A stretch of DNA of 64,000 bases. Source: Terriglobia bacterium (GTDB lineage: Bacteria; Acidobacteriota; Terriglobia; 20CM-2-55-15). A program made the translations under genes and the position numbers. The notes below the pieces were generated by a model. It did not search any database, had not been told where the DNA came from, and saw only the letters and a program-made list of their open reading frames with translations. The DNA is taken from assembly GCA_963664115.2 (NCBI GenBank), contig CAXWPJ010000002.1, forward strand, positions 608,001-672,000. The letters run 5' to 3'. Positions 4,047 to 64,000 of this stretch are shown here, piece by piece. Position 1 is the first letter of the stretch, and every line of letters begins with the position of its first letter.

Positions 4047-4090
4047 GAGTTGAGAGCAAAGGCGTTCCAACTTTTAACTCTCAACTCTTA
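4044..4090. repeat. Heptamer-based inverted repeat (REP/STRR-like hairpin)
   Basis: TAAGAGTTGAGAG (4044-4056) ... CTCTCAACTCTTA (4078-4090), perfect 13-bp arms; related ACTCT/ACTTT heptamers recur near 24092-24165 and 35400-35420. Confidence 0.7.
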
Positions 4091-4100
4091 ACCAGAAAAA

Positions 4101-5483: not shown

Positions 5484-6309
5484 GAAACGTATTCAGCGCT
5501 GGACCCGGCTGTTTCAATCTCAGTCTTCCAAATCAAAGGCAGGTGCGAGGTCCGGTATGAACGGCTTTCTTCGCGTTGCCGTCTGGGTCCCGGTGTTTCT
5601 GGGCCTTGGTTTTGGAATTTACGAATCCATCAGTTACGCCTACGAGACGGATCGTTTCGAAGTCCGGAGAATTTCGGTGTCCGGCCTCCATCGGGTCTCT
5701 GAGAACGAAATTCTCTCGCGCGTCGGCTACGCTTCGGGGGCAAACGTTTTGCACGTGAACCTGGAGGAGACCCGCGAAGCGATTGAAGAAATCCTCTGGG
5801 TGAGGTACGCGACGGTCCAGCGGGTATGGCCGAACGAGATTGTCATCTCCCTTGTCGAACGGCAACCGATCGCGCTGGCCCGAATCGATTCCGAAATTTT
5901 TCAGGTGGATATTGAAGGCGTCGTCCTCTCACCGGATGCGCTGACCGAGATCAATGGCCCGGTTCTCGATGGACTTCATGCGGGTGATCCCTCGGGCAAT
6001 GAAATAAAGATCAATATCTACAGAGAGATCGTAGACGCAATCGGTGAGAGTGATTTGTCCGAGGTCCACGTTGCTGAATCAGGCGAGGTGTCTGTAGTCC
6101 CGACCGACAATCCCATACTGATCGACCTGGGTTTGACCAGTTATCGTGATCGTTGGGAGAAGTACGTCGGTCTGAGCGTGCGAATTCACGAAGACTACCC
6201 TGACGCTTTCCGTGTAGACCTGCGCTTTCGAGATCAGGTCATCATTCAAACCAAAGAGAGTGAGCCGGCTGGGAACATCATATGGGGCGAAGAGACAAAA
6301 CTATTGTAG
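5476..6309 (+). CDS. ftsQ: Cell division protein FtsQ/DivIB
   Basis: Basic N-terminus, one TM helix, POTRA-like WVRYATVQRVWPNEIVISLVERQP, C-terminal DLRF; lies between murC and ftsA. Confidence 0.9.
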   Translation: MIKKRIQRWTRLFQSQSSKSKAGARSGMNGFLRVAVWVPVFLGLGFGIYESISYAYETDRFEVRRISVSGLHRVSENEILSRVGYASGANVLHVNLEETREAIEEILWVRYATVQRVWPNEIVISLVERQPIALARIDSEIFQVDIEGVVLSPDALTEINGPVLDGLHAGDPSGNEIKINIYREIVDAIGESDLSEVHVAESGEVSVVPTDNPILIDLGLTSYRDRWEKYVGLSVRIHEDYPDAFRVDLRFRDQVIIQTKESEPAGNIIWGEETKLL

Positions 6310-7496: not shown

Positions 7497-7620
7497 GCTG
7501 CACCGATTGCACGAATTAACGTTGATGCGGATTACGCATTAAAAAGAACCAGCTCATGTTTATGACGAATAAATCCGCGAAGTTCGTGACTGAAAACGAT
7601 TCCGTGTAATCCGCGTAAAT
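7477..7620. repeat. Degenerate nonamer-based inverted repeat (ACGCGGATT/AATCCGCGT type REP-like)
   Basis: TTACGCGGATT (7479-7489), GCGGATTACGC (7527-7537), AATCCGCG (7572) and TCCGTGTAATCCGCGTAA (7601-7618). Confidence 0.5.
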
Positions 7621-46970: not shown

Positions 46971-49385
46971 TTGAATCGTCCCTGGATTCTTTCTGTCCTG
47001 ATCCTGTTCCTGATCGCTGGCATCCCGACACTGGCGCGCGCGCAGTCGTCCGGTAGCGTTGAGGGCTTCATTGCCCTGCCGACCGGAGACCCTGTGGGCC
47101 GTGCAACCGTGCTGCTCTCCGGTCTGGACCGCGTGGCCGAAACCGACGCCAATGGCCGCTTTCGTTTCGACAACGTACCGGTAGGGACATATGGCTTGGT
47201 GGCATATCGGTGGCTCATGTCGGCTGAAGTCGACCAGGTTCTGGTCGGGCAAGGTCAGACCGGGAACGTCCGAATGCAGCTCGGGTCTGCCCTGGTGGTA
47301 ATGGAAACAGCCCGGCCGGCCGATCCGGCAAGGCTTGCCGAAGCCCCCGAAGCAGGTCTGGTGGCGTCGGCAAATTCCCAATCTCTTGAAGTGCCTGTGA
47401 ACGCCGTGCAGAACCGTTCGACCCCGATCAGCACGTTTGATATGACCCGTGCCGGAGCCTCGACGCTCGGCGATGCAATGGATTCCCGACTGGGATTTAA
47501 CACCCGAAGCTTCGGCCAGAGTATCTCGCGGCCAATTTTCAGGGGATTCGATGGAGACCGGGTTCTGATCCTCGGAGACGGACTTTCTGGTGGGTCGCTT
47601 GCCTACCATTCAGGTGACCATTTCGAGCCGTTTGCCCCGGGCACGATCGAACGGATCGAGTTCCTGCGCGGGCCTTCGACGTTGTTGTACGGCAACAGCC
47701 TGGTCGGCCGTGCGATCAATGTCGTCGGACCTGGCCGGACCCGAACGCCGGCTTCGGGTGAAGGCTGGCGTGGGCGCACGTCCTCCGGATTCGGCTTCGG
47801 TGACGCGTATGCCGGCAGTTCTGTCCAGGCCGAGTACGCGAGCGGCAACTGGCAGTTTTCGCTGGCCGGTAGCAGTCGCCGCGCCGGTGATTACGACTCG
47901 CCCCTCGGCTCGGTTGAGAACTCCGGGAACGGTCTGGCCGATGGCTCGGTGGGCATTACATGGTTCGACGACTCCGCGTTCATGGGTTTCAATTACAGCG
48001 TTGGTCGAGGAAGCTATGGCATACCGGTCGCACCCGAATTCCGATCTGCTAACGCAGCGATCCCCATACCGGATGCAGTCGATGTCGAGTTCCGTCGACA
48101 TGGTGTTGAGTTGTTCGGTGGCGCTCGTGCTGAGTACCTCGCGTTCGAGGGTTTCGAATTCTCGGCGAGTTACAGTTACTGGGACCACGATGAAATCGAA
48201 ACTTTCAATGATGTTGGTCCGTCCATCGCCACAAATTTCGGAAATCGGGTCTTGAGTTACCGCGCTTGGTTTGACCAGAAACGAGCCGGTGTTCTCGACG
48301 GCCGAATCGGATTCTCCACCTCGACCAGGGAATATCGGGCGAACGGCCGGGAGCAATTGTTGCCATCGGTCCGCCGTAACAATCTTGCGGTGTTTGCCGT
48401 CGAAGAACTCGATCTCAGTCCGTTTCTGTTAGAGATGGGTGGCCGTATCGATTATGCGGGAGATGGAGTGCGCGGCTTGCTGACCCGCCGGATCAACCCT
48501 CTTGACGCGGACGCCGGATTCGCGCAGGACTTTTTCCGGGGTCGGTCCTTTGTCGGGGGAACAGGATCCCTTGGCGCGAGTGTCCAGGCCTGGGACATCG
48601 GAGAATTCAGGGTCGACCTGACCAGTGGGTACCGGCAACCCGCAATCGAGGAGCTCTATAGTTTCGGTGCGCATGTCGGCCGTCTCACTTTCGACATCGG
48701 CGACGTCACCCTGCGAGCTGAGCGTTCCAACGGGGCCGAGATCTCATTCACCCACACGCGTCCACGGTTCAGTGCCGAGATGGATGTGTTCTATTACGAC
48801 ATCAAGAACTTCGTCTATTTCGGCCTGAACCAGAATTTCTTGCAGGGCCTTATGGAGGCGGAGTACCAACAGGGGCCGGCCCGGTTCAGCGGCGTTGAGC
48901 TGGCGCTGGATTTCCAACTGCACCGTTCAACCAGGCTGAAAGTTGGGATGGAAACCGTCCAGGCCACGCTCAGGGATCTGGGTACCTCCCCTCCCCGGCT
49001 TCCACCGTTTCGCGCAAGGTTCGGTCTGGACTACCGCCTCGGAGGTCTCCGTTTCAGTCCGGAGCTCATCGTGGCTGATTCCCGTGAGGAGGTGTTTTCG
49101 GGAGAGAATCCAACTCCCGGGTACGGACTGGTCAACATGGCCGCTTCCTATACGCTACCCCGCGAAAACATGTCGCATCAATTTGCGTTCAATGTCTTCA
49201 ACTTAGGGGACAAGCTTTACCGGGACCACAACAGCCTGCTCAAGCGCCTGGTGCCCGCATGGGGCCGTGGCTTCCGGATCACCTACGCGATGGAGTTCAC
49301 CAGACCGGCGCCTTCCGGTGGTGCATCGTCTTTCGATCAGGAAGGCCTGGGGTTGGCTGCGGGCGGGCCGACGCCATTGGACTGA
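46971..49385 (+). CDS. TonB-dependent receptor with N-terminal carboxypeptidase-regulatory-like domain (ZnuD-like)
   Basis: Signal peptide, TDANGRFRFDNVPVGTY, plug SRPIFRGFDGDRV..DG..GDH, IERIEFLRGPSTLLYG, FNLGDKLY; TTG start with GGAG RBS. Confidence 0.9.
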   Translation: MNRPWILSVLILFLIAGIPTLARAQSSGSVEGFIALPTGDPVGRATVLLSGLDRVAETDANGRFRFDNVPVGTYGLVAYRWLMSAEVDQVLVGQGQTGNVRMQLGSALVVMETARPADPARLAEAPEAGLVASANSQSLEVPVNAVQNRSTPISTFDMTRAGASTLGDAMDSRLGFNTRSFGQSISRPIFRGFDGDRVLILGDGLSGGSLAYHSGDHFEPFAPGTIERIEFLRGPSTLLYGNSLVGRAINVVGPGRTRTPASGEGWRGRTSSGFGFGDAYAGSSVQAEYASGNWQFSLAGSSRRAGDYDSPLGSVENSGNGLADGSVGITWFDDSAFMGFNYSVGRGSYGIPVAPEFRSANAAIPIPDAVDVEFRRHGVELFGGARAEYLAFEGFEFSASYSYWDHDEIETFNDVGPSIATNFGNRVLSYRAWFDQKRAGVLDGRIGFSTSTREYRANGREQLLPSVRRNNLAVFAVEELDLSPFLLEMGGRIDYAGDGVRGLLTRRINPLDADAGFAQDFFRGRSFVGGTGSLGASVQAWDIGEFRVDLTSGYRQPAIEELYSFGAHVGRLTFDIGDVTLRAERSNGAEISFTHTRPRFSAEMDVFYYDIKNFVYFGLNQNFLQGLMEAEYQQGPARFSGVELALDFQLHRSTRLKVGMETVQATLRDLGTSPPRLPPFRARFGLDYRLGGLRFSPELIVADSREEVFSGENPTPGYGLVNMAASYTLPRENMSHQFAFNVFNLGDKLYRDHNSLLKRLVPAWGRGFRITYAMEFTRPAPSGGASSFDQEGLGLAAGGPTPLD

Positions 49386-49409: not shown

Positions 49410-51056
49410 ATGAAGAAAGCCGATTCCCTGGCTTTTCTCGCGGTGTTTATTTCTCTTCTGCTTTCTGTGCCGACGACGAGGGCTCAGGAAGCGGATTTCG
49501 GCGACATTGAACTCAGGCGGGCGCCGCTTGTCGGGGAGGCCCGGTTGTCGCTGCAGCGGACCGTCGAAATCGCGCTGGAGAGCAACCCCGACCTCGTCGT
49601 GGAAAGGCTCCGAATAGAGCAGTCCCGGGCGGGTGTCGAGGAAGAAAAAGGCGTCTACGACCCAGTCTTTTCCATGTCCGGTCTTGCAGGACGGCGAGAC
49701 AACGTCATCGCGAGTAGATTTTTTCCGACCGGTGAATTCACCGAAGAGAATTTCGTTTACGGTGCCGGCCTGAACGGGGTGACGCACTTGGGATCCCGTT
49801 ACAGTCTGGATCTGAACTATCAACGTCAGATCTCAACGTCGAACACCCAATCTTTGAGTCCCCAGTACTCGGCTACGCTGGATCTGACTTACAGCCAGCC
49901 TCTGTTTCGCGATTTTGGCACCGATGTGACGCTGACCCAACTCCGGATTGCGCAGCGCGAACAGGACATTTCAGAAGAGAATCTGGCGATTGGTCTGACC
50001 AGCCTGATCTTCGAGGTCGTCGAATCGTACTGGAACCTGGTCTTTGCCACCGAGGACCTGGCTGTACGTCGCGCAAGCTTCGAACTGGCTGAAGCTTTGC
50101 TCGAGCAGACCGAAACGCTTTTTGAATCCGGACAATTATCTGAACTCGACGTCCTCGAGGCGCGGGCGGGTGTCTTCGAGCGACGCGAAGACGTAATCCG
50201 CTTCGAGAACCAAGTCGCTGGGGTCGAAGATCTCCTCAAAATTCTGATGTACGCGGACATGGCAGTTGTGAGCGTGACGCCGACCGAGCCGCTGATCGTA
50301 GTCCCCGTAGATCCGAACCCTCAGGAAAGCAACGACCGGGCTCTGGGTCGACGACCCGAGATCTTGAGGCTCCAGACCGTGCTCGAGCAGCGGCAGAACG
50401 AAACGATTTTTGCGTCCAACCAGGTGCGCCCACGCATCGACCTGAACTTGACGTACGGGATGAGTGGGCTGTCGGGAAGACCCAACTTGACACTCGTAAA
50501 TCCTGGAAATCCGCTACAGGGTTTTGCCGGAAGCACCGTCGCCGGTTCGGTGTTTGCGGGCCTGACACGGCCTCTGGGCGCGTTCAATCGGTTCTTCAGC
50601 GGCGACTCCTTCGACAACTGGAGTGTCGAGTTGCGTGTGGAACTACCCCTGCGCAATCGAACCGCTGAAGCCCGACTTGCCAATGCGGGACTGCGCGAGA
50701 AAGAAAGCCAGGTCACGCTGGCCACCGTTGAGGAACAGGTCGTATTCGAAATCCGCCAGGCGCTGAGGGACCTTTCCACGGCAACCGAGAGCATCGATGC
50801 GTCGCGCGAGGCAGTCCGCTATGTTGAGGACCAGCTCGTTGCGACGCGTACGCGGTTCGAAGCCGGCCTGTCAACCAGCTACGACGTTCTGCGTGTGCTC
50901 GAAACGCTGGCCCTGTCACGGCGGCGCGAGTTGCAGGCCTTGACCGACCACAACATTGCCCGCGCTGCGTTGAGTCTGGCCGAAGGCCGTATTCTGGAAG
51001 ACTTCAACGTCGAGGTGGGTGGGGCATCCCGCTCCAATTCGGGGACATCCTTTTAG
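49410..51056 (+). CDS. TolC family outer-membrane channel
   Basis: Signal peptide, LSLQRTVEIALESNPDL, QPLFRDFG, YWNL, RRPE, RFEAGLST; two-repeat OEP layout. Confidence 0.93.
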   Translation: MKKADSLAFLAVFISLLLSVPTTRAQEADFGDIELRRAPLVGEARLSLQRTVEIALESNPDLVVERLRIEQSRAGVEEEKGVYDPVFSMSGLAGRRDNVIASRFFPTGEFTEENFVYGAGLNGVTHLGSRYSLDLNYQRQISTSNTQSLSPQYSATLDLTYSQPLFRDFGTDVTLTQLRIAQREQDISEENLAIGLTSLIFEVVESYWNLVFATEDLAVRRASFELAEALLEQTETLFESGQLSELDVLEARAGVFERREDVIRFENQVAGVEDLLKILMYADMAVVSVTPTEPLIVVPVDPNPQESNDRALGRRPEILRLQTVLEQRQNETIFASNQVRPRIDLNLTYGMSGLSGRPNLTLVNPGNPLQGFAGSTVAGSVFAGLTRPLGAFNRFFSGDSFDNWSVELRVELPLRNRTAEARLANAGLREKESQVTLATVEEQVVFEIRQALRDLSTATESIDASREAVRYVEDQLVATRTRFEAGLSTSYDVLRVLETLALSRRRELQALTDHNIARAALSLAEGRILEDFNVEVGGASRSNSGTSF

Positions 51057-51069
51057 TCTGGAGCCCAAC

Positions 51070-51885
51070 ATGAAATCAACGATTCGAATAATGTGCGGCG
51101 TGTTGGCCCTCGGCGTCGGCTCTGGCCAGTTTCTTGCTCAACAAGCCGCGACCGGTGTCGTGCGAGCCGAAGAGGCCGTCATCGTTCGCAGCGAAGTTGT
51201 GGGCATCGTCGACCAAATCGATGTCCAGGAAGGCCAGCGCATATCGGAAGGCGAGCCGCTCGTGCACCTGCGGAAGGACCTCCAGGAGATCGGTCTCCGC
51301 CTCGCAGCGGCACGGCTGGATCGGGCTGAAGCCACCGCGGCCGCCTCGGAGGTGACGCTTGAGAATGCCCGGCACACTCTGGCACGAGTGGAAGTCGCGG
51401 CAACTGCGCTGACCGAAAAGGAATACGAGGACGTCATCGATGAGGTGCACCGTTTGGAGGCGCTGCTAAAGGCGCAGGAGGCCGAGGTCGTCGAGTTCCG
51501 CGTGGAGCAGGATCTTCGCCAGCAGGAGTTTGACGCCCGCTCGATTCGTGCCCCCTTCGACGGTACCGTCACAGCGGTCTATCTGGTGCGGGGCGACGCC
51601 GTGGCGCCTCTGGAAACGCCGATTCTGGCCCTCGTGCTTCTGGATCAACTGTACGTCGAGCTGGCACTGCCGGTGTCTGAACTCCCCAGACTCGCAGAAG
51701 GCATGCGGGTTGGAATCGACGTGGAAAGCGAAGTCCTTGGCCCGGCCGGACAGGTGGGCGGTGTCATCCGATATATCAATCCCACCGTCGACCCGTCGAG
51801 TCGCACGTTCCTGGTTAAAGTCGGATTTTCCGATCCGCCCGGACAGATCCGACCTGGAATGCGGGCTGACGTCGAGCTGCCATGA
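51070..51885 (+). CDS. HlyD/RND-type periplasmic adaptor (membrane fusion protein)
   Basis: Lipoyl half-motifs GIVDQIDVQEGQRI and IRAPFDGTV around a coiled coil; INPTVDPSSRTF, IRPGM; ATG 51070. Confidence 0.92.
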   Translation: MKSTIRIMCGVLALGVGSGQFLAQQAATGVVRAEEAVIVRSEVVGIVDQIDVQEGQRISEGEPLVHLRKDLQEIGLRLAAARLDRAEATAAASEVTLENARHTLARVEVAATALTEKEYEDVIDEVHRLEALLKAQEAEVVEFRVEQDLRQQEFDARSIRAPFDGTVTAVYLVRGDAVAPLETPILALVLLDQLYVELALPVSELPRLAEGMRVGIDVESEVLGPAGQVGGVIRYINPTVDPSSRTFLVKVGFSDPPGQIRPGMRADVELP

Positions 51886-51912: not shown

Positions 51913-53775
51913 ATGGAATACAGAGACGAACACCATGATGAGTCGGCGCCGGCCGACCTGATCGACGAGCTGGAAAGCCTTAGACGTTTCAATGGCCCGC
52001 CGGCACAGTTCTGGCCGCTGTTTCTGGAAAAGGCCGGCATGTTGGTGACGGCCCATCTGGCCGTGCTGCTGATGTTTTCCACCGACGACAAGTCCTGGAA
52101 GCGTATGGCCCTGTGGCCTGAGAGCGAGAAGGACACGCTCAAGATGCCGAAGCTGACCGGCGATATCGAGCGGGTGGCCGGTCGTTCCCTGGCCGAACGG
52201 TCCGCGATCAGCTCCGATGATCTTCCACCCGAACTGGGCGATGCCTGCCTGATCGGCCTTCGTCTCGGGACCGGGCAGGATGTCCAGGTCGTGGCCGTCT
52301 TCATCATCGGGAACTCGACCTACACCGATGCCGAAGAGGCGCGAATGCGCCTCAGCCTGATTGCCGATACGCCGAGCCTCTATCAACTCGGGCGCCTGTT
52401 TGACCAGACGCGATCCGATGTCGGCAAGTTCAGCGATTCGCTCGACCTGACGGTCCTGATCAACGACCAGACCCGCTACGTCGCAGCCGCGATGACGCTA
52501 TGCAACGAAGTCGCCTCCCGATTCAACTGCGATCGCGTGTCGCTGGGCTGGTTGAAGGACGGCTATGTCCGGGTCCAGGCCATCAGCCACATCGAACGCT
52601 TCGAGAAGAAGATGGACGTGGTTCAGGCGCTGGAGGCCGTCATGGAAGAGGCTCTGGACCAGGACACGGAAATCGTCTGGCCTTCGCCCCCTGAGGGCCA
52701 CTTCATCACCCGCAGCCACGAGTCGTTTTCGAAACGCGAAGGCGCTTCCGACATCGTGTCGCTTCCGATGCGGATCGAAGGGGTTCCGGTTGCGGTTCTC
52801 ACCTGCGAACGGAGCGGTGATTCGTTCGCTGAAGAAACCGTCCGCGGACTACGACTGCTTTCCGACCTGGCCACACGTCGCCTGGGCGATCTTCGCGACC
52901 GGGACCGGTGGATCGGCGCCCGGGTGGCCGGGGCGGTTCGTGACGGTGCCGGGCGTCTGGTGGGCGTCGAACACACCTTCGCCAAGCTCGCCGGCATCGT
53001 GCTGATGGGTCTTCTGGCGTTCGGAATTTTCGGAACCCTGGAATACCGCGTCGAAGCGCCGTTCGTTCTCAAGTCCGACGATGTCGTCTACGTGTCGGCG
53101 CCTTTTGACGGGTTCATCGATCAGGTGCCCATTGACGTCGGCGATCCGGTGGAACCCGGTGATCTGTTGCTCAGTTTTGACACGCGCGAACTCCTCCTTC
53201 AGGAAGCCACGGCGATCGCAAACCAGATCCGTTACGAGCGGGAAGCCGAGCAGGCCCGGGCCCAGCGCGCAACCGCCGACATGATGATCGCTGAAGCGCT
53301 GGCCGACCAGGCCGGGGCGCAACTGGCACTGGTGCGGCACTTTATTGAACGGGCCGAGGTGCGGGCGCCGTTCAACGGCATTGTCGTGGAGGGCGATCTT
53401 CAGGAACTGTTGGGGACACCGGCTCAAAAGGGAGATGCGCTGTTCCGGATCGCCCGGACCGAGAACCTGTACGCCGAACTCGAACTCGATGAGCGGGACG
53501 CCCAGGACGTGTCGGAGGTGTCGACCGGCGAGATCGCTTTCCTGACCCGCCCGGATCTGGTTTTCCCGATCGTGGTTGAACGGACCGATCCGGTGACGGT
53601 GACCCGCGACGCAGATAATGTCTTCATCGTTCGCGCTAACCTGTCGGGCGAAGCCTCAGACTGGTGGCGGCCCGGCATGAGCGGCATCGCCAAGATCAAT
53701 GCGGGGCGGAGAAACGTCCTCTGGATCCTTACGCACCGAACGATCGATTTTTTGCGAATGTACCTGTGGTGGTAA
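51913..53775 (+). CDS. GAF-like domain + HlyD adaptor fusion protein
   Basis: Cytoplasmic GAF-like region (CDRVSLG, EEALDQD, IVSLPM, AVLTCER), one TM, VSAPFDGFI / VRAPFNGIV, WWRPGMSGIAKI. Confidence 0.85.
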   Translation: MEYRDEHHDESAPADLIDELESLRRFNGPPAQFWPLFLEKAGMLVTAHLAVLLMFSTDDKSWKRMALWPESEKDTLKMPKLTGDIERVAGRSLAERSAISSDDLPPELGDACLIGLRLGTGQDVQVVAVFIIGNSTYTDAEEARMRLSLIADTPSLYQLGRLFDQTRSDVGKFSDSLDLTVLINDQTRYVAAAMTLCNEVASRFNCDRVSLGWLKDGYVRVQAISHIERFEKKMDVVQALEAVMEEALDQDTEIVWPSPPEGHFITRSHESFSKREGASDIVSLPMRIEGVPVAVLTCERSGDSFAEETVRGLRLLSDLATRRLGDLRDRDRWIGARVAGAVRDGAGRLVGVEHTFAKLAGIVLMGLLAFGIFGTLEYRVEAPFVLKSDDVVYVSAPFDGFIDQVPIDVGDPVEPGDLLLSFDTRELLLQEATAIANQIRYEREAEQARAQRATADMMIAEALADQAGAQLALVRHFIERAEVRAPFNGIVVEGDLQELLGTPAQKGDALFRIARTENLYAELELDERDAQDVSEVSTGEIAFLTRPDLVFPIVVERTDPVTVTRDADNVFIVRANLSGEASDWWRPGMSGIAKINAGRRNVLWILTHRTIDFLRMYLWW

Positions 53776-53781: not shown

Positions 53782-55935
53782 ATGGCCTTCGGTAATACAT
53801 TCAGCGAATCCTGGCACCGGGTGGCCGGGCTGCGGATCAGCCTGCGGCCCACCGTATCGGCAAGGAAGCAGTTTTTCCGCGGTGAGACCTGGTACGTACT
53901 GGAAGACCCCTTCAACAACAGTTTCTTCCGCTTGCGTCCCGAAGCTTACGAATTCGTTTCCCGCCTGGCACCGGACCGCACGGTTGAAGAGGTTTGGGAA
54001 GGTTGCCTGACGCGCAAACCCGAGGACGCTCCGGGGCAGGAAGACGCGATCCGGCTGCTCAGCCAACTCTATTTCGCAAACCTGTTGTATTTCAAAACGG
54101 CCGGCGACAGCGAGGCGTTGTTTGAGCGGTACCGGCAGCGCCGCCAGCGGGAAACCAAATCCAAGCTCATGTCGATCATGTTCATGCGCATTCCCATGAT
54201 CGATCCCGATCAGATGTTGCGCGCCGTTATGACGGCGATTCGTCTGTTCATCAGCCCGATCGGATTGGCGATATGGGTTGGGGCTCTGGGTTACGCGATC
54301 AAGCTCTTCTTCGACAACTTCGCCGAAGCCGCTGACCAGACCCAGGCCATTCTGGCGCCGTCGAACCTCTTCCTGCTCTATCTGGGCCTGATCGTCACCA
54401 AGACCGTCCATGAGTTCGGCCACGCCATCGTCTGTCGACGGTACGCCGGAGAAGTGCACACGATGGGCATCATGCTGCTGGTGTTCACGCCGATCCCCTA
54501 CATGGACGCCACGTCGAGCTGGTCGTTCCGAAGCCGATGGCAGCGCGCGTTCGTGGGCGCGGCGGGCATGATCTTCGAGCTGTTTGTCGCGTCGATTGCA
54601 ACCGTCGTGTGGGCCAATACCGATGAGGGCACTATACACAGCCTGGCGTACAACATGATGTTCGTCGCGTCGATTTCGACCCTGGTATTCAACGCCAACC
54701 CGCTGCTGCGCTTCGACGGTTACTACATCCTCTCGGACCTGGTCGACATTCCGAACCTGTCGAACCGGTCGTTCCGGCAGATCCGTCACGTCGTCGAGCG
54801 CTACGGATTCGGATACCTGGAATCCGAGAGCCCGTCGGATTCGATGCGCCAGGCCACGCTGCTTGGCGGTTTCTGCGTCCTGAGCGCGGTCTACAAGGTC
54901 CTCGTGTTCACTGGAATCGTTCTGTTCGTGGCCGACAAGCTGTTTCTGGCCGGATTGATCATGGCGGCGGTGTGCGTGTTTGCCTGGCTGGTCGTTCCGT
55001 TAACTCGGCTGCTGACCTACATAGCGACCGGTCCGCACCTGGCGCGGAAGCGGGCCCGCGTTGCCCTGGTTTCGCTCGGTACACTTGGCGTCGTTTTCGG
55101 ATTTCTGGGCGTCTTCCCCTTCCCCAATCATTTCCGTGCCGATGGCGTTCTCGAAGCCGCCCGATTCCAGCTCGTCGCCAACGATGCGTCCGGCTACGTC
55201 GTTGCGGTGCGGACACCACCGGGTGCAACGGTCCAGCCGGGAACCCCGCTGTTCGAACTGGCCGATCCCGAGCTTCAGTTCTCGATCGATTCGGCCGAAG
55301 CCGAGCGTCGGGAAACCCTGGCCTTTATGCAACGGGCCCTGGACAGGCAGATCGCCGAAATTGAGCCGATTCAGAAACGGCTGGACACCATCGAGCAGAA
55401 GATTGCCGACCTGGAACAGGTTCGCGAATCTCTGCTCGTGGTAGCCGCACAAGAAGGTATCTGGGTCGCGGCCGAGTCCGGTCAGCTCGACGGGTCGTGG
55501 GTCCAGCGCGGTTCGATCCTGGGCCAGGTCATCGACGAGGGTCAGTTCCGGTTTGTGGCCGCTGTTCTCCAGGACGAAGCGTCCAACCTGTTCGCCGAAG
55601 CGATTCGAAAGGCCGAGGTCCGTGTTCGCGGACAAGGGGGATTGACCGTCCCGGTCCAGTCCTATGAAGCCATTCCCTTCGAATACCGAAACCTCCCCTC
55701 GGCTGCGCTGGGCTGGCTGGGCGGTGGTGACGTGCCGGTTGCCGCCGATGACGAGACCGGTGTGGCGGCCACCGAGCCGTTCTTCCTGATCTACGCCGAT
55801 CTGGACGACGTGGGTGAGGTGGCGTATCTCCGCGGTCGGCGTGGCGAGATCCGGTTCACCCTGGAGCCGCAGCCGCTGCTGGCGCAGTGGTACACGAAAT
55901 TCCGCCGGTTATTGCAGGAGCGGTACCAGATTTGA
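53782..55935 (+). CDS. PqqD/RRE-like domain + site-2 (M50) metallopeptidase + HlyD adaptor fusion
   Basis: HEFGH (54409-54423) and NANPLLRFDGYY (54691-54726) within TM region; N-terminal YVLEDP..FFRL..AYEF..L..RTVEE winged-helix-like pattern; C-terminal lipoyl/coiled-coil module. Confidence 0.88.
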   Translation: MAFGNTFSESWHRVAGLRISLRPTVSARKQFFRGETWYVLEDPFNNSFFRLRPEAYEFVSRLAPDRTVEEVWEGCLTRKPEDAPGQEDAIRLLSQLYFANLLYFKTAGDSEALFERYRQRRQRETKSKLMSIMFMRIPMIDPDQMLRAVMTAIRLFISPIGLAIWVGALGYAIKLFFDNFAEAADQTQAILAPSNLFLLYLGLIVTKTVHEFGHAIVCRRYAGEVHTMGIMLLVFTPIPYMDATSSWSFRSRWQRAFVGAAGMIFELFVASIATVVWANTDEGTIHSLAYNMMFVASISTLVFNANPLLRFDGYYILSDLVDIPNLSNRSFRQIRHVVERYGFGYLESESPSDSMRQATLLGGFCVLSAVYKVLVFTGIVLFVADKLFLAGLIMAAVCVFAWLVVPLTRLLTYIATGPHLARKRARVALVSLGTLGVVFGFLGVFPFPNHFRADGVLEAARFQLVANDASGYVVAVRTPPGATVQPGTPLFELADPELQFSIDSAEAERRETLAFMQRALDRQIAEIEPIQKRLDTIEQKIADLEQVRESLLVVAAQEGIWVAAESGQLDGSWVQRGSILGQVIDEGQFRFVAAVLQDEASNLFAEAIRKAEVRVRGQGGLTVPVQSYEAIPFEYRNLPSAALGWLGGGDVPVAADDETGVAATEPFFLIYADLDDVGEVAYLRGRRGEIRFTLEPQPLLAQWYTKFRRLLQERYQI

Positions 55936-57917
55936 TCGTTCCCAGCCATGACTACATGCGGACGGCCACGGTGGAACCGCCCGAGTTTCATCGTGGGTGG
56001 GATGGGGCGGCCTACGGCATCGTCGGCGCGTGGAAACGCCGACCAACCACACTCGGCCGCTTCGGGCGCCAGGCGGACCGGATCTATGACATGGCCGGCC
56101 GGCTTGGACATTTGTCCGACAGCGCTCTTCGGGAGCGCATGTCCGGATTTCGGGAGCGATTCCGGTGCCACCGGGTCCGGGATGACGCGGTGGTCTCCGA
56201 GGCTCTGGCCGCGATCGTCGAGGCCGCTGAACGGAGGCTGGGACTGCGGCCATACCCGGTGCAGATCGTCGGTGCCCTGGCCATGGATCACGGATTTCTC
56301 GCCGAGATGGCCACCGGCGAAGGGAAGACGCTCACCGCCTGCCTGCCGATGATCCTGGCCGCCTGGACCGAGCGCCCCGCACACCTGGTCACGGTAAACG
56401 ATTACCTCAGCGACCGCGATGCAACGGAGATGGGTCGCCTCTACGCTTTCTGCGGTGTTTCAGCTGCGGCGGTGACCGCCCCTATGGACCAGCGCGAACG
56501 GTACCGGAACTACCAGAAAGACGTCGTCTACGTCACCAGCAAGGAGCTGGTCGCTGACTTTCTCCGCGACCGGCTGCGGTTGGGCAAACTCGAGCATCCC
56601 ACACGACGGCTGATCGCCGGCATGTTGCCCGGCGGTACCATCCGGCCCGACGAAATCGTGATGCGCGGTCTGGACACCGTGATCGTCGACGAGGCCGACA
56701 GCGTTCTGATCGACGAGGCGGTGACGCCGCTGATCATCTCCCGGGCCCGCGATAACGAGACGCTGCGTGAAGCGTGCCGCATCGCGAGCGAGATTGCAGA
56801 TACGCTGGAGCCCGGCAGCGACTATCAGGTCGATGAGCGGTACAAGGAAGTCCGGATCACCGACGCCGGCGAGGCCCGGGTTCTTGATGCCGCGGCAAAA
56901 CTGCCCGGCGTCTGGCAGGGGACCCTGCGCCGCGAGGAGTTGGTCAAGCAGGCGTTGACCGCGCGCGAATTCTATATCCGGGACAAACAGTACGTCGTCG
57001 ACGACGGCCGATTGACGATCGTCGATGAGTTCACCGGCAGACTGATGCCGAACCGGTCCTGGCGGGCGGGCCTCCACCAGGCCGTTGAAGCCAAGGAAGG
57101 CCTGGATGCCACGCTGCCGACCGAGACCCTGTCCCGGCTGAGTTTTCAGCGGTTCTTCCGGCAGTTCCGGCGAATCGGCGGGATGACAGGGACGGCCAGC
57201 GAAGCAGCTTCCGAGTTCTGGCACATCTACGGGCTGCCCGTCCTTCGGGTCCCGACACACCGGCCGATGGTGCGCGATACGTATCCGGACCGGGTATTTG
57301 CGACCCGGGACGAGAAATTCAACGCGATCGTCGATGAAATCGCGGCCTGTCACGAGTCCGGCCGTCCCGTTCTGGTCGGAACCCGAAACGTCGAAGCCAG
57401 TGAGACTCTCGCCTCACTGCTCCGGTCCCGGAACCTGGAATTCAACCTGTTGAACGCCACCCACCACAGCGACGAAGCACGCATCGTGGCTGCGGCCGGC
57501 CAGCCCGGCAACATCACTATTGCGACGAACATGGCCGGACGTGGGACCGATATCAAGCTGGGCCGCGGCGTGGGAGCCATGGGCGGGCTCCACGTCATTG
57601 CCACCGAGCGCCATGAGGCGCGGAGAATCGACCGTCAGCTCTTCGGACGATGCGCACGACAGGGCGACCCCGGCAGCGCGCGGGCCTATATCAGCGTTGA
57701 TGACGAACTAATCAAGCGCTTTGTGCCGGTCTGGGTACGGAACGGGCTCGAAACTGCCGTTGCCGCCGATTTGCCGGCCGCATCGCAGATGGCGCATAGG
57801 GTGTTTCGATATGCGCAAAAGGCGGCCGAAAAACTCGCATTTCGGCAGCGCGCCTCGGTGCTGCGTGCCGATGAGCACCTGGAACGGAGCCTTGGTTTCG
57901 CCGGTCCCGGCAGCTGA
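55932..57917 (+). CDS. Accessory, C-terminally truncated SecA-type ATPase (SecA_DEAD)
   Basis: EMATGEGKT, VTVNDYL, DEADSVLIDEA, IVDEFTGR, GLHQAVEAKE, TNMAGRGTDI, RRIDRQLFGRCARQGDPG; ~660 aa; TTG 55932 overlaps the upstream TGA, CAGGAG RBS. Confidence 0.93.
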   Translation: MIVPSHDYMRTATVEPPEFHRGWDGAAYGIVGAWKRRPTTLGRFGRQADRIYDMAGRLGHLSDSALRERMSGFRERFRCHRVRDDAVVSEALAAIVEAAERRLGLRPYPVQIVGALAMDHGFLAEMATGEGKTLTACLPMILAAWTERPAHLVTVNDYLSDRDATEMGRLYAFCGVSAAAVTAPMDQRERYRNYQKDVVYVTSKELVADFLRDRLRLGKLEHPTRRLIAGMLPGGTIRPDEIVMRGLDTVIVDEADSVLIDEAVTPLIISRARDNETLREACRIASEIADTLEPGSDYQVDERYKEVRITDAGEARVLDAAAKLPGVWQGTLRREELVKQALTAREFYIRDKQYVVDDGRLTIVDEFTGRLMPNRSWRAGLHQAVEAKEGLDATLPTETLSRLSFQRFFRQFRRIGGMTGTASEAASEFWHIYGLPVLRVPTHRPMVRDTYPDRVFATRDEKFNAIVDEIAACHESGRPVLVGTRNVEASETLASLLRSRNLEFNLLNATHHSDEARIVAAAGQPGNITIATNMAGRGTDIKLGRGVGAMGGLHVIATERHEARRIDRQLFGRCARQGDPGSARAYISVDDELIKRFVPVWVRNGLETAVAADLPAASQMAHRVFRYAQKAAEKLAFRQRASVLRADEHLERSLGFAGPGS

Positions 57918-58000: not shown

Positions 58001-58030
58001 TTGACATTATGGTGTCTCATGCGTTAAAAG
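58001..58030 (+). promoter_or_regulatory. Possible sigma70 promoter for the giant protein gene
   Basis: TTGACA at 58001-58006 followed by an AT-rich but imperfect -10 (TTAAAAG, 58024-58030). Confidence 0.4.
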
Positions 58031-58075
58031 ATCCTAGCTTTAAAGCTTAGAATTACTGGGAAGAGAAAGCTCAAT

Positions 58076-61000
58076 TTGAGTCGAAAGCAAGACAAAGAAC
58101 GCTACAACCTTGAGAACCTCGAGCCCCGAATCCTACTTTCGGGTGACCCCCTCGTCGGTGCCTTAGCCAGTCTTGCGCCCAGGGAGGCCGACTCTGAAGA
58201 GCCCATTCTCACCTCCGTTCAGGAGGTGACGGTTTCGGAAGAAACGCTCTACGAATCCCACACAACCGACTCGGAACCGTACGATCCGGCGGCCTCGGTC
58301 GACGACATTTTCTCTGGTATGACCGGTGAAGATTCTCTCGCCGATGGTGCCGATGACGCGTCCGATTCCTCCGATTCCAGCGACGTCAATTTCCCGATCG
58401 GCGACGACGAAGCCGCGCAAATTGTGCAAGGCCTCGACGAACTGGCCGGCGTCGGCGAGGTGATCAGCGAGTCTGAAACGCTGACCACACCGCTCGATGG
58501 TCTGGGTGATCTATCACTGGGCGACGTCTTCGGCGTGGGCGAAATTCTGGATTCGCGACTGGCGAAATCGGTGTATGACCACTTCGGTGATGCGGTCGAT
58601 CCGCCCACTGTAGAGGGAGTCATAGAGGCCATCCGAAATGGCCTGACTGCCCTGGGTGAACAGGAAATTTCAGTCAGTTCACTCGAGGGTATAGTTGTGT
58701 CTGGCGGCGAACAGATCCGCTTCGACATCGCCTTCACCCTCCGCCAGTCCGGTCAAATCTTTCTCGATCAAGACCTTACCGATTCCGACGGCGCCGAATC
58801 TACCACCTATACCGCAACGCTGAAAGTCGATTTGAGTTTTGGTGTTGATCAAGGCCAGTCCGACAGCTTTTTCCTCATCATTCGTTCTCTTGAGATCGAA
58901 TTGACCGTGAATCAGCCCGGAACGGGAGCTTCTGAGAGCGGCCGTGTCGAGGTCGGGTTCGCTGGGGCGGCCGGGGCAGACGGCGCGCTCAGCGTCGCCG
59001 AACTCGAGGCGATCCAGTCCAGCGGTGCCGAACTGGAGATCGAGGCGACCGGATCGCTGTTCGATGACGGAAGCGCAGATTTTGCGTCACTGGCTGCGAC
59101 CTCTGCGCTGACCACTTCGGGAGCCGCGACCAGCTTCGTGACGTTGGATGAATCCCCTGCCGCAAGCTCGGCAGTGACCACCAACCTCGCCGATCTGACG
59201 CTTGGGCCCAACTCGATCACGACGTTCAATATCGGCGGCACAACCCCCGGCTCCGGATACGACCAGACTATCGTCTCTGGCGACGTCACACTGGATGGCG
59301 AGCTGGCAATCGTCGTGGCCGCCGGCTTCGGCCCGAGCCTGGGCGATACATTCGACATCGTCACGTTCACCGGAAGTGTGAGCGGCGCATTCGTCGACGG
59401 AACCGGCATCTACGGGTTTGGCGATGGTTCGCTGTTCCTTGAGGTCGTCGTAGAAGACAGTACTGCCGAAAGTGACGGTAAGGTCCAGCTGGAAGCCAAG
59501 ACGGCCCCGGGCGGGAATTTCATAACTTCCAGTACGCCACTGCTCAGCGATGTGCTCGGCCTCTATTACAGCGAGTACTTCACGCTGGGCGCTTCGGTCG
59601 CCATCAGCGGTGAGATCAACATCGGCGGATACGTGACCCTCGCGGGAACCTTTGAATTTGGCTTCAGTCTGGATGAGACGGTCACGCTTGGGACCGGATT
59701 GCCGACGACCCTGACTCCCGAGCTCGTGACCACTGTTGGCGCACAAATCGAATTAGCTCTGGCCACGATCCCGGGTACCCAGATTCTTTCCCCTGATCTG
59801 CAGTCGATCACTGGCCTTCCCGTTGCGGTTCTGGAAATCGGCGGTAGCAATATCCACGCGTTCGTGGGTGTGAACGGGCCGTACTGGACAGACCTGAATG
59901 GAAACGGGGACGTCGATACCGGGGAAACCAACGAAAGTGCCACCGGCCTGGCGATTACCAACGTCGATTTCGGTTACGTTGCGATGCAGTTGCTGCCTTC
60001 GGTTGTGGCCTTGCCCCTCAACGCCCAGTTCTTCCAGGCCTTGAAGGCGACCGCATCCCAGGTGGGGTTGGTGGGCGTCCCCAACGTCGAACTGTCGGTC
60101 GATAACGTTCTGATCGAAGTCAACTCGGGTCCGACCTGGACGGCGCTGGGTGTTAGCGGTGACGGGCCGGCGGTGGTCGACTTTGAAGCTAGCTTCCTGG
60201 CCCAGACTGGAACCGACACGGACGGAGACAGCAAGCACGTTGAGCCGGCTGGCTATGAGGTCGGTACCGGCACGGTGCCGGTTTACATCGACCTGGATGG
60301 CAACGAGCGGCTCGGTGCCAGTGTGGACAACGCGCTGCTGTCGATCGGGGGCAGCGACGGCAAGTTTGTCTATGCGAACGGCAACCTGTCGTTCGAGAAG
60401 GGCCCGACCAGCATCGTGACTGTTGCGACCGGTATCCCGGCCAACATCAATGGAACCCCGGCCGGAGACACCATCGAGACGAATTTCGCGACCCGGACGG
60501 GGTTGAGTGGCAGCAGCGCGACACTGTCGGGCGACATGCAGACGATCAGTAACGTTCAGATGGCCAGTCTTCAGATTGGCGGAAGCGCTATTCAGATCTT
60601 CGTGGGCGTCAACGGGCCATACTGGACAGATTCGGACAAGGACGGCAACGTCGATCCCGGAGAAACCAGCGACAACGCGACCGGCGTGTCGATCACCAAC
60701 GTGAACTTCGGTCTGGTGACGATGACGCCGACCCAGGAACTGCCGCTGTTGAGCAGCCAGACCTTCACGGCGTTGAAGCTGACTGGTTCCCAGGTGGGCC
60801 TGGTTGGAGTCCCTGGGGTGGAGTTGTCGGCCGACAACGTACTGGTGGAGGTCAACACGGGTCCGACCTGGACGGCGACGGGTATCAACGGCGATGGCCC
60901 GGCGGTGGTCGATTTTGCCGCCAGCTTCCCGGCGGCGAACGGCTCCCCGGCCGGTTTCGAGGTGCGCACCGGCACGACATCGACGCCCGTCTATATCGAC

Positions 61001-64000
61001 TTCGACGGCAACGAACGAATCGGTGCGAGCGTGGACAACGCGTTGTTGTCGATCGGGGGCAGCGACGGCAAGTTCGTATACGCCAACGGAAACCTGTCGT
61101 TCGAGAAGGGCCCAACCAGCATTGTGACGGTTGCAACCGGTATACCGGCGAATATCGTTGGAACCGCGACCGAAACGGCCTTGAGAGCGCAGTTTGGTGT
61201 GGCGACCCTCGTAAGTAGCAACGTCACGCTGTCGAACGATCTGCAGACCATCAATAACGTGCAGGTTTCAGGCCTTCAGATTGGCGGCAGCAACATTCAG
61301 ATTTTCGCCGGAGTGAACGGGCCGTATTGGACAGATACGGACAAGGACGGCAACGTCGATCCTGGTGAAACCAGCGACAGCGCGACGGGCGTGTCGATCA
61401 CCAACGTGGACTTCGGGTTGGTGACGATGACGCCGACCGTCGAGTTGCCGCTGTTGAGTGACCAGACGTTTACGGCGTTGAAGTTGACCGGTTCCCAGGT
61501 GGGACTGGTCGGTGTCCCGTTTGTGCAGCTGTCGGCCGACAACGTTCTGGTGGAAGTGAACACGGGGCCGACCTGGACGGCGGCTGGTATCAATGGTGAC
61601 GGGCCGGCGGTGATCGATTTTGCCACCAGCTTCCCGGCGGCGGGCGGCTCCCCGGCCGGTTTCGAGGTGCGCACCGGCACAACATCGGCACCGATCTATA
61701 TCGCTTATGACGGCAACGAGCGGATCGGTGTAAGCGTGGACAACGCGTTGTTGTCGATCGGGGATAGCAGTGGCAAGTTCGTCTATGTGAACGGCGACTT
61801 CTCGTTCGAAAAGGGCCCGACCAGTATCGTGAGTGTCGCGACCGGTCTTTCCAGCGACCAGCTGCCAGGCGTTCCGGCCCTCATAAAAGCGCAATTCTTG
61901 GCCGAGGCGTTCCTGAATCAAACCAACGCGACCTTGTCGGCCGACCTGCAGACGATCAGCAACGTTCAGATGTCGAGTCTGCAGATTGGTGGCAGCAACA
62001 TTCAGGTCTTCGTGGGCTTGGGCGGACCGTACTGGACGGACCTGGATCGCAATGATGATGTCAGTTGGGCATTGCCCGATGGAACCACCCGGACCAACGC
62101 CAACGGCACGCCGATGGCGAATTTTGTCCACACTGATGGCGTCACCTACGGTGACCTCAACGGCGACGGTGTGGTGGATGCGAACGAAACGGCCGAGCTG
62201 AGCGAAAACGCGACCGGATTCGCAATCACCAACGTCAATTTTGGTCTTGTCATGTTGACGCCGACCCAGGAACTGCCGATGCTGGGCAGCCAGACCTTCA
62301 CGGCTCTGAAGCTGACCGCCACCCAGGTCGGTCTGGTGGGCATCGATGAAGTTCAGATCAGCGCGAATGACATCACCGTCAGCGTGAACGTCGGGCCAGA
62401 TTGGACAGGTCTGGCTAGCGGGCAGGGACCGGCGGTCGTTGATTTCGTCAACAGTTACCCGGCTGAAGCCAGCAACACCGACAGCGACAACGATGGACTG
62501 TTGGGCGAGCCGGCCGGCTTCCAGGTGCGTACCGGCACTACATCGGCGCCGATCTATATCGATTTCGACGGCAACGAGCGAATCGGCGCCAGGATCGAAA
62601 AAGTCACGCTGAAGATCTCCGAAGTTGTCCATGCGACCGGCAGCATCGAGTTCCTCAAAGGCCCCGTGCAGAGGGTCGGTCTGACCGGCGGGGGCGATAA
62701 GCAGCTGTCGTTCATGACCATTGGCGGGTCCAACCTCCACGCGTTCATTGGCATGGACGGTCCGTACTGGACGGACCTGGACGCCGATGACGACATCAGC
62801 TGGGCCTTGCCGGATGGGACCACCCGGACCAACGCCAATGGCACGGCGATGGCGGATTTCATCCACACTGATGGCGTCACCTACGGTGACCTCAACGGCG
62901 ACGGCAAAGTCGATGCCAATGAGACGGCTGAGCTGAGCACGGAAGCTGTGGGGCTGGTCATCAACGACTTCGATTTCGGCCTGGCAATTATGTCGCCGAC
63001 GAGCCCATTCGACTTCGTCGACTACTTCGCCCTCAAGGCCAGTGCCGATCAGATCGCTCTGGTGGGTATCGACGACGTGACGATCTCGGGCGAGGACATC
63101 AAGGTCGCAGTCAACCATTCCAGCCCCAGTCTCAAAGGCATACCGATCTTCCCGGTCGTCGATTTCAGCAACACAACTGTCCGGCCGGAGTTCGCCAACG
63201 AGGAGTTGGCGCTGTTCGACCAGAATATCAGCGGACGAATCACGCTTGGCGACCTGGCGACCCTGAATGCAGCACTTCCTGCCGCATCCAGATTCGCCGA
63301 CCTCGCGGGAGTCTCCCTGACCGATGCCACACCGGTCGATCACGAAGGCTTGCTCGCCATCCTGAACACGAACGACGCCGGAGACAGTCGGGGCATCATC
63401 GACATCGACGAAGCCGCGGCGTTGCTCGGCGGTGCGACGGCGGTTTCGCAGGTCGAGAATGCGGACATCGACCTCGATGGCAAGATCGATCCGCTCGGTT
63501 TCGAGATTGGCACCGGCGGCGATCCGGTGTACCTGGACATGAATTCGGTCCTGATACGCGCGCAGGGATTTGTCGACATCAAGATTCTTGATGTCGTATT
63601 CCTGTCCGGCAGTGTCGCCTTTGAACTCGGGCCCATCCACACGGTGACCCTGGCCGACGGCGTGACCACCAAGAGCGTCAGCACGATGACCATCGGCGCG
63701 GCCAACGTGACCGGATTCATCGGTGTAGACGGGCCGTACTGGACCGATCTGGACGGCGATCACGAGGTTTCCTGGTCGGATGCGAACGGCGACCCGTTGG
63801 TCGATACGGATGGTGACGGTGTCGTCGATGCGAACGAGACCTCTGAGCTGAACGGCGATGCAGTCGGCTTCCACGTGACCGATCTCGATATCGGTATCAC
63901 CCTGATGGCCGCGACTGCGCTTAATGATCTGGGCGTATACCTCGCCGCCAAGCTCGACGTGAACAGCTTCGGCCTGATCGGAATCCCCGGGCTTACGGCG
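58076..64000 (+). CDS. Giant LEPR-XLL-motif acidic repeat protein, probable secreted adhesin/surface protein (partial, >=1975 aa)
   Basis: TTG 58076 (first start after in-frame TAA 58025) reads MSRKQDKERYNLENLEPRILLSGDP...; frame still in register at the window end (..NSFGLIGIPGLTA); six GPYWTD-anchored repeats with DxDxDG loops. Confidence 0.92.
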   Translation, partial: MSRKQDKERYNLENLEPRILLSGDPLVGALASLAPREADSEEPILTSVQEVTVSEETLYESHTTDSEPYDPAASVDDIFSGMTGEDSLADGADDASDSSDSSDVNFPIGDDEAAQIVQGLDELAGVGEVISESETLTTPLDGLGDLSLGDVFGVGEILDSRLAKSVYDHFGDAVDPPTVEGVIEAIRNGLTALGEQEISVSSLEGIVVSGGEQIRFDIAFTLRQSGQIFLDQDLTDSDGAESTTYTATLKVDLSFGVDQGQSDSFFLIIRSLEIELTVNQPGTGASESGRVEVGFAGAAGADGALSVAELEAIQSSGAELEIEATGSLFDDGSADFASLAATSALTTSGAATSFVTLDESPAASSAVTTNLADLTLGPNSITTFNIGGTTPGSGYDQTIVSGDVTLDGELAIVVAAGFGPSLGDTFDIVTFTGSVSGAFVDGTGIYGFGDGSLFLEVVVEDSTAESDGKVQLEAKTAPGGNFITSSTPLLSDVLGLYYSEYFTLGASVAISGEINIGGYVTLAGTFEFGFSLDETVTLGTGLPTTLTPELVTTVGAQIELALATIPGTQILSPDLQSITGLPVAVLEIGGSNIHAFVGVNGPYWTDLNGNGDVDTGETNESATGLAITNVDFGYVAMQLLPSVVALPLNAQFFQALKATASQVGLVGVPNVELSVDNVLIEVNSGPTWTALGVSGDGPAVVDFEASFLAQTGTDTDGDSKHVEPAGYEVGTGTVPVYIDLDGNERLGASVDNALLSIGGSDGKFVYANGNLSFEKGPTSIVTVATGIPANINGTPAGDTIETNFATRTGLSGSSATLSGDMQTISNVQMASLQIGGSAIQIFVGVNGPYWTDSDKDGNVDPGETSDNATGVSITNVNFGLVTMTPTQELPLLSSQTFTALKLTGSQVGLVGVPGVELSADNVLVEVNTGPTWTATGINGDGPAVVDFAASFPAANGSPAGFEVRTGTTSTPVYIDFDGNERIGASVDNALLSIGGSDGKFVYANGNLSFEKGPTSIVTVATGIPANIVGTATETALRAQFGVATLVSSNVTLSNDLQTINNVQVSGLQIGGSNIQIFAGVNGPYWTDTDKDGNVDPGETSDSATGVSITNVDFGLVTMTPTVELPLLSDQTFTALKLTGSQVGLVGVPFVQLSADNVLVEVNTGPTWTAAGINGDGPAVIDFATSFPAAGGSPAGFEVRTGTTSAPIYIAYDGNERIGVSVDNALLSIGDSSGKFVYVNGDFSFEKGPTSIVSVATGLSSDQLPGVPALIKAQFLAEAFLNQTNATLSADLQTISNVQMSSLQIGGSNIQVFVGLGGPYWTDLDRNDDVSWALPDGTTRTNANGTPMANFVHTDGVTYGDLNGDGVVDANETAELSENATGFAITNVNFGLVMLTPTQELPMLGSQTFTALKLTATQVGLVGIDEVQISANDITVSVNVGPDWTGLASGQGPAVVDFVNSYPAEASNTDSDNDGLLGEPAGFQVRTGTTSAPIYIDFDGNERIGARIEKVTLKISEVVHATGSIEFLKGPVQRVGLTGGGDKQLSFMTIGGSNLHAFIGMDGPYWTDLDADDDISWALPDGTTRTNANGTAMADFIHTDGVTYGDLNGDGKVDANETAELSTEAVGLVINDFDFGLAIMSPTSPFDFVDYFALKASADQIALVGIDDVTISGEDIKVAVNHSSPSLKGIPIFPVVDFSNTTVRPEFANEELALFDQNISGRITLGDLATLNAALPAASRFADLAGVSLTDATPVDHEGLLAILNTNDAGDSRGIIDIDEAAALLGGATAVSQVENADIDLDGKIDPLGFEIGTGGDPVYLDMNSVLIRAQGFVDIKILDVVFLSGSVAFELGPIHTVTLADGVTTKSVSTMTIGAANVTGFIGVDGPYWTDLDGDHEVSWSDANGDPLVDTDGDGVVDANETSELNGDAVGFHVTDLDIGITLMAATALNDLGVYLAAKLDVNSFGLIGIPGLTA
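59876..64000 (+). repeat. Intragenic tandem repeats of ~235-325 codons
   Basis: GPYWTD codons start at 59876, 60614, 61319, 62024, 62759, 63731 (spacings 738, 705, 705, 735, 972 bp). Confidence 0.9.

Follow-up and report, generated by a model that had tools for sequence, protein, structure and literature searches.

The export of bacterial proteins that are 5,000 to 37,000 residues long poses an open question, which the locus described here raises directly: a gene for a giant protein with an N-terminal LEPR-XLL tag adjoins genes for a TolC channel, HlyD-type adaptors, an M50 protease and a second SecA. Which machinery takes the giant out of the cell, and what part does the tag play? We analysed a window of 64,000 nucleotides (G000:C2:608001-672000, where G000 is this genome, 97% complete) and followed the gene beyond its edge. 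The host is most likely a member of the Terriglobia (Acidobacteriota), and the closest relative of the short SecA is titled Terriglobia (71%), its genome being classed in the host's own family; the planctomycetes, for which an initial annotation noted such motifs in particular, are not the likely host.

Table 1 Features of the window, numbered from its first base
Feature	Position	Strand	Evidence or remark
TolC-family outer-membrane channel	49410..51056	+	PF02321, 157 bits
HlyD/MFP periplasmic adaptor	51019..51885	+	PF16576, PF13437; TIGR01730, 129 bits against a cut-off of 94.9
GAF–HlyD fusion	51913..53775	+	PF01590, PF13437, PF16576
RRE(PqqD-like)–M50 site-2 protease–HlyD fusion	53782..55935	+	Intact HEFGH and NxNPxxxxDG motifs
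PqqD/RRE-like domain of the M50 protein	53860..54087	+	Three strands, then three helices; putative tag reader
Truncated second SecA	55887..57917	+	Has the DEAD motor and preprotein clamp; lacks wing and C-terminal scaffold
Weak sigma-70-like promoter match	58024..58053	+	9/12 bases; 1 found against 0.1 expected
Giant LEPR-XLL gene, first 1,975 codons	58076..64000	+	Calculated total about 7,786 aa; gene ends at contig position 689,410
LEPR-XLL tag	58106..58168	+	NF012209, residues 11–31, behind a short basic start; putative export signal
Acidic low-complexity linker	58184..58414	+	Sequence composition
Beta-rich FNIGG...GDTFDIV segment	59225..59362	+	Widespread mobile module with no Pfam family
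Tandem GPYW repeats, 235–325 aa, DxDxDG loops	59561..64000	+	Six GPYW motifs; a degenerate seventh unit lies beyond the window

One continuous giant gene

The frame that opens at the TTG at 58076 had been read as uninterrupted to the window edge, and it is: its 1,975 codons contain no stop. Translated past the window, the frame extends to 6,560 codons and ends at contig position 685,758 (77,758 if the window numbering were continued), in a garbled stretch that belongs to the third unit of a 483-bp tandem repeat and is 26 bases short relative to the other copies; a further 1,204 codons follow in another frame. At this break the contigs of four out of four public runs (3 studies), which may come from repeat copies 1 or 2, have 78 letters instead of the 52 garbled ones, and read depth over the garble is ~1, compared with 22–32 alongside. 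We conclude that the break arose in assembly; on the evidence of the bridging contigs from all four runs we reject a broken gene, and the giant open reading frame (ORF) is one real, continuous gene. Its length of about 7,786 aa is an arithmetic figure, with the copy number of the 483-bp repeat not fixed.

Only two ORFs in the genome reach 1,800 aa or more, and the giant is one of them. Its TTG start, 14–15 codons ahead of the LEPR motif, recurs in three close homologues. The short secA lies 158 bp ahead of the giant gene, and both are read from the plus strand; a search for a terminator between the two found none, and a weak promoter match precedes the giant gene (Table 1). Distal pieces of the gene are present at ≥99% identity in two sponge-metagenome runs (one study), and a seawater run contains a diverged relative. 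A transposase-like ORF (G000:C2:690607-691497, minus strand) lies about 1.2 kb past the end of the giant gene.

A tagged, repeat-rich protein

The motif LEPRILLS occupies 58118-58141, as first described, and membership of the LEPR-XLL family is upheld by NF012209 (31.3 bits against a cut-off of 17). A profile search for other proteins of this type in the genome matched the giant alone. From the family name LEPR-8K we take NF012209 proteins to be very large and repeat-rich, and the giant, with its roughly 7,786 aa and three repeat families, has both traits. E16, R18, L20 and L21 are invariant in 33 of 33 aligned leaders, which were picked with a pattern that fixes these four positions. The tag has no hydrophobic core. 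Planc_extracel, the second family named for comparison, was not supported (PF07595 has no match at E ≤ 0.01 in residues 1–1975), and the acidic linker behind the tag is as reported, aspartate and glutamate making up 22% of residues 1–250.

Behind the linker comes a unique domain. The beta-rich FNIGG...GDTFDIV segment, which is part of it, lies where it was first placed, whereas its likening to autotransporter domains is a lead only, with no Pfam match. The segment has 2,434 representatives at E ≤ 0.001 and look-alikes in the Atlas at 0.77–0.78; a PATR or autotransporter barrel occurs in 2 of the 40 carriers scanned (from 150 listed), and a search of PDB sequences with the segment returned nothing meaningful. 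We rejected a type Va autotransporter as a description of the giant: neither the PF03797 barrel nor the PF12951 passenger repeats matched residues 1–1975 or the distal pieces, and the C terminus has no barrel.

Behind this segment come the long repeats that had been claimed, six or seven GPYW repeats spanning residues about 496–2110. A model of two of them (pLDDT 90.3, pTM 0.88) contains strands of up to 25 residues and is predicted to form a long-stranded beta-sheet. No match was found when the repeats were searched against PDB sequences or when their model was searched with Foldseek at E ≤ 0.001, and the best VIA hit (Z 9.3, r.m.s.d. 9.1 Å, 213 aligned residues) was to a porin wall, reflecting a common arrangement only; the model may represent a repeating-groove lipid-transfer fold. 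Relatives of the repeats occur in 40 metagenome loci; in 8 of them the ORF opens with a LEPR-type tag, and most of the loci stop short of the start.

Beyond the window, in its RTX-rich distal three quarters, the protein carries an RTX cluster (residues about 2,780–2,900), about ten 100-residue repeats (3,100–4,100) and long RTX-type arrays (5,900–7,600), with a weak Calx-beta region and weak EF-hand matches in its distal part. All 15 PF00353 matches of the genome fall in the giant, over the cut-off in all three distal pieces. The tail is rich in Gly, Ser and Asn and ends in KKE. Cysteine is absent from the 7,782 positions read (X at the break), compared with about 0.6% in the long ORFs of the genome. 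We found no membrane helix in the giant and, in Pfam and NCBIfam, no enzyme, toxin or pore domain. The RTX pore-forming toxin model NF033943 was rejected, scoring 77.9 and 61 bits against 1000; it matched the calcium repeats alone and no pore domain. Amid this beta-rich protein, residues about 2555–2630 form an Ala/Gly/Val-rich, amphipathic-looking helical stretch.

Two giants of a relative have residues 1–450 and 3,100–6,500 in common with this protein and not the GPYW block, and the giant is therefore modular. An extracellular location is very likely for it, and an adhesin plausible. Of the two functions first put forward, adhesin and surface layer, the second is unlikely, because the protein would have a mass of about 780 kDa.

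A module with a second SecA and no ABC pump

The five genes upstream of the giant (Table 1) include no ABC pump, and no accessory secY was seen among the ORFs of the locus. The short SecA has 676 aa (open frame 699 aa), and the canonical SecA is encoded elsewhere, on contig C4 (open frame 915 aa). The short form keeps Walker A, the DEAD motif and the clamp, and is alignable only to about residues 1–612 of the canonical protein. In the M50 protein, all 104 alignment rows share the catalytic residues H210, E211, H214 and D312. Its N terminus scores 0.97 in the Atlas to a PqqD cluster (PF05402 in 41% of its members), and PF05402 is matched by four of four distant M50 orthologues, two over the cut-off; the copy in the window has no Pfam PqqD match of its own. 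We infer from these comparisons that the protein starts, over about its first 100 residues, with a PqqD/RRE-like leader-binding domain. A single-sequence model of the M50 protein has a pLDDT of 40, with the RRE part of low confidence, and yielded no informative fold match; a search of PDB sequences with the M50 alignment gave weak adaptor matches only.

The M50 protein has 58–59% identity with proteins that carry the label Thermodesulfobacteriota or Desulfuromonas, against only 31–35% with most orthologues of its own phylum; the higher identity outside the phylum is a hint of lateral transfer. A second, distant M50–HlyD paralogue (G000:C4:44262-46544, minus strand; E = 5.5e-38) has an RRE-looking start, and neither SecA nor a tagged gene was seen around it; members of the family often have an M50 match of this weaker tier and no tag. 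Directly upstream of tolC lies a TonB-dependent receptor gene (46971-49385). In genome G351 a similar-looking gene also precedes tolC, with a transposase-like ORF between the two (labels assigned by eye).

Across the genome (97% complete), no type I ABC transporter exceeds the model cut-offs, the best scores being 411 bits against 725 for HlyB, 349 against 693 for LssB and 255 against 510 for PrtD; several ABC exporters score 335–411 bits on the HlyB model. In two near-identical ABC exporter regions (G000:C10:375804-377555 and C9:9149-11112) the HlyB-model match extends into the N-terminal part, and these are possibly peptidase-containing peptide exporters, one copy being split.

Tag and module track together across genomes

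The giant had been proposed as the cargo of the adjacent system, and the distribution of the two makes this probable. Searches of 719 genomes with NF012209 and with the M50 protein and short SecA found module genes in 35 of the 36 tag-bearing genomes; kin among these genomes are not independent, and most are drafts. Owing to this kinship, Fisher tests overstate the association, and they do not enter the evidence.

In the phylum of the host (377 distinct genomes: 351 + 31 - 5 shared; G023 counted in the denominator and the weak tier only), 10 genomes have the tag, 10 have a full-length M50 orthologue (E ≤ 2e-115) and 9 have both. Closer inspection accounts for both mismatches: in G343 a short SecA fragment sits at a contig start right before the tagged gene, and in G090 a variant tag adjoins the module. 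Weaker M50 paralogues were found in 18 further genomes of the 351 and 10 further genomes of the 31, none with the tag. Among the 31 near relatives, 6 have tag and module and 25 have neither; none of the four congeners has either.

In the Planctomycetota-centred sample (n = 181), 49 genomes gave an M50 match at E ≤ 1e-45, among them every one of the 21 with the tag (G553 on a partial match only), and 19 of the 21 are among the 24 genomes with top-tier M50 matches. Five genomes of the Desulfobacterota-centred sample (n = 161) have the tag, three of them with an M50 orthologue and one with a cut short SecA. The draft G680 has a tagged ORF and canonical SecA only, with no M50 or GAF–HlyD match. 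Planc_extracel motifs occur in G536 and G554, which have no short SecA.

Conversely, NF012209, which is known to miss tags (a real one in G354 was passed over), has no match in eight top-tier module genomes (G545, G488, G485, G492, G455, G562, G666 and G697). It also matched none of five genomes in another set, four reached through canonical secA loci and G562 with the module, and a GAF–HlyD query run with no positive control matched none of 5 test genomes.

Other tagged loci vary in layout. G351 (C1:3151900-3205258; L043–L046) has two tandem tagged giants behind its short secA, both breaking in an RTX tandem-repeat zone, probably owing to assembly errors. Tagged ORFs of 14,970 and 8,409 aa lie either side of the module in G145 (C66:65565-135734), G355 (C93) and G535 (C4) have tagged ORFs of 14,180 and 11,600 aa, and G486, from the Planctomycetota-centred sample, has at least 4 short-SecA copies.

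A proposed export route and alternatives

The adjacency of giant and module, the sole tag in the genome, the lack of an ABC transporter over the cut-off and the joint distribution of tag and module together support the module as the exporter. That it handles the giant in some way is quite likely; on balance, we favour a reading in which the ABC-less module exports the tagged protein as a probable calcium-stiffened surface adhesin filament. In our somewhat favoured view, the M50 protein would use its PqqD/RRE domain, in the cytoplasm, to bind LExLEPRxLL as in the recognition of a RiPP leader, and the intact M50 site might then cut off or release the leader, a step that we propose with more reserve. 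The short SecA, which keeps the ATPase and clamp and is without the C-terminal part that pushes into SecY, would probably ratchet the chain, still unfolded, into a tunnel that three HlyD-type proteins form with TolC. Outside the cell, RTX and DxDxDG loops would take up calcium, and a long, beta-rich filament would probably make contact with host matrix or other cells.

A route in two steps is unlikely. The short SecA would act as an accessory SecA2 that feeds SecYEG, or the membrane domain of the M50 protein, and the giant would reach the periplasm and cross the outer membrane later, through HlyD–TolC or by itself. Accessory SecA2 systems export large adhesins in Gram-positive bacteria, and the motor here is SecA-derived, with its clamp intact. 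Symbiosis proteins that wait in the periplasm, according to the parts of a preprint that we drew on (Kuzyk et al., bioRxiv 10.64898/2026.03.19.712371), are likewise in keeping with two steps. Against these points, the tag has no hydrophobic core, the SecA aligns with only about the first 612 residues of its canonical counterpart and the locus has no visible accessory secY; the three HlyD-type proteins with TolC suggest a continuous tunnel, and a chain of about 7,800 residues with no cysteine agrees with a bypass of the periplasm.

Export could also run from the C terminus with the N terminus as a tether, although we give this a small chance. The RTX end would leave first, the tag would stay anchored on the RRE domain and M50 cleavage would be a regulated release, similar to that of LapA, which is released by LapG. 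RTX arrays at the C terminus typically go with export that begins at that end, the giant carries such arrays in its distal part and the GAF–HlyD protein could supply a signal input. SecA, by contrast, normally engages chains from the N terminus, and many tagged ORFs are far shorter, with the tag alone in common. C-terminus-first transport, by other genes, was proposed by Kuzyk et al. (bioRxiv 10.64898/2026.03.19.712371); this proposal and the wait in the periplasm, as far as those parts of the preprint describe them, fit poorly with a one-step, N-terminus-first tunnel.

The route could be as we propose and the task another: instead of an adhesin, the giant might be a protein that is delivered on contact and gets into or remodels a partner cell, or it might form a lattice at the surface. 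The predicted long-stranded sheet of the GPYW repeats, the amphipathic-looking stretch near residues 2555–2630 and the identical DNA in sponge metagenomes would suit such a role. The weak Calx-beta and EF-hand matches suit adhesins, however, and Pfam and NCBIfam show no enzyme, toxin or pore domain, RTX-toxin models matching the calcium repeats alone; we regard this reading as rather improbable. Least credible is export by a classical type I system whose ABC pump is encoded at another site in the genome, with the module serving another purpose: the giant is acidic, cysteine-free and RTX-bearing and several exporters score 335–411 bits on the HlyB model, yet none exceeds the HlyB, LssB or PrtD cut-off and the tracking of tag and module in three phyla would be left unexplained.

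Relation to known systems

The favoured reading, N-terminus-first export by the module, departs from type I secretion in its motor. In size, modular repeats, RTX nonapeptides, acidity, lack of cysteine and association with TolC and HlyD, the giant resembles LapA, SiiE and the Marinomonas ice-binding adhesin, which we take to be giant RTX type I adhesins; it differs in having no cognate ABC transporter over the cut-off, a conserved N-terminal tag, and a SecA-type motor with a membrane protease. Compared with a canonical type I substrate, it has the RTX repeats and neither a Sec signal nor cysteine, and the HlyB/LssB/PrtD-type ABC is missing.

The module itself has been described. Kamneva, Poudel and Ward (2015; PMC4452313) reported a secondary SecA_DEAD/M50 locus, for which they suggested that SecA serves as the ATPase and that M50 forms the pore; Methylobacterium extorquens AM1 is among the carriers of the module that they name. 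Our locus has all five gene types, a second short SecA_DEAD beside the canonical one and no ABC transporter, as theirs does. The parts of that paper considered here name no substrate, PqqD/RRE domain or Acidobacteria (the neighbours in its S2 Table were outside our scope).

The closest counterparts of the giant are two LEPRxLL giants of Chlorobium chlorochromatii, which the parts of the preprint by Kuzyk et al. (bioRxiv 10.64898/2026.03.19.712371) that we covered describe as made, exported and moved into the partner cell. There the Cag giants are said to have no known transport signals, export by SapC/TolC/HlyD is proposed and one recently acquired secA is noted; this organism also appears, with a second SecA_DEAD and further cluster members, in the trees of the parts of Kamneva et al. 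considered here (PMC4452313). By description, not by sequence, our giant is similar to Cag_663 and Cag_665 as they are portrayed in those parts: an N-terminal LEPRxLL, giant size, beta-rich repeats, predicted calcium sites and a nearby TolC gene. In contrast to the Cag giants, a whole SecA/M50 module adjoins it, and we propose the tag as the signal.

For the putative tag reader, the nearest parallel is the daptide peptidase MpaP, an RRE–site-2 protease that removes a leader with the motif ELExMEAP (Ren et al., bioRxiv 10.1101/2023.03.08.531785, in the parts covered). As described there, MpaP also has its RRE N-terminal to the site-2 protease, and ELExMEAP resembles LExLEPR. Compared with RRE-fused site-2 leader peptidases in general, the M50 protein has intact HExxH and NPxxxxDG motifs and, as far as its sequence indicates, the N-terminal PqqD/RRE domain. 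It differs from MpaP in scoring 158.6 bits on NF041824, below the cut-off of 300, in its extra HlyD domain, in that short precursors and modifying enzymes were not seen and in a proposed client of 7,800 residues.

A wingless SecA_DEAD occurs in giant proteins of Omnitrophota, where it was proposed to aid export (West-Roberts et al., bioRxiv 10.1101/2023.11.21.568195, in the parts covered). From that account, both cases tie a SecA motor without wing and scaffold to giant proteins; in Omnitrophota the SecA is built into giants that span the membrane and lie near genes for type II secretion, whereas our locus has a free-standing secA gene and a giant with no membrane segment.

Discussion

Taken alone, the giant simply adds one more member to a named family, and the description of the module dates from 2015; the interest lies in the link between tag and module, and the new part is this link, with the tag as signal, together with the RRE domain. 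Neither was stated in any paper found, in a search that covered few subscription journals and left the Kamneva neighbour table and the bioRxiv supplements out of scope. In the parts considered, the sole experimental LEPRxLL study that we found describes giants with no known transport signals, and the 2015 module paper names no substrate.

As a tentative generalization, LEPR-XLL may be the N-terminal signal of a previously undescribed route by which bacteria secrete their largest proteins, in which a RiPP-style RRE domain reads the tag, an intramembrane protease clips it, SecA stands in for an ABC pump and HlyD–TolC forms the tunnel, the cargo here having a repeating, long-stranded beta-sheet fold unmatched in our searches of solved structures. 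The locus is a clean case for this question: one tag, one giant and one module, all adjacent, in a genome with no canonical type I ABC transporter over the cut-off. With tag and module paired, signal, reader domain, motor and channel would all be at hand, and each can be mutated.
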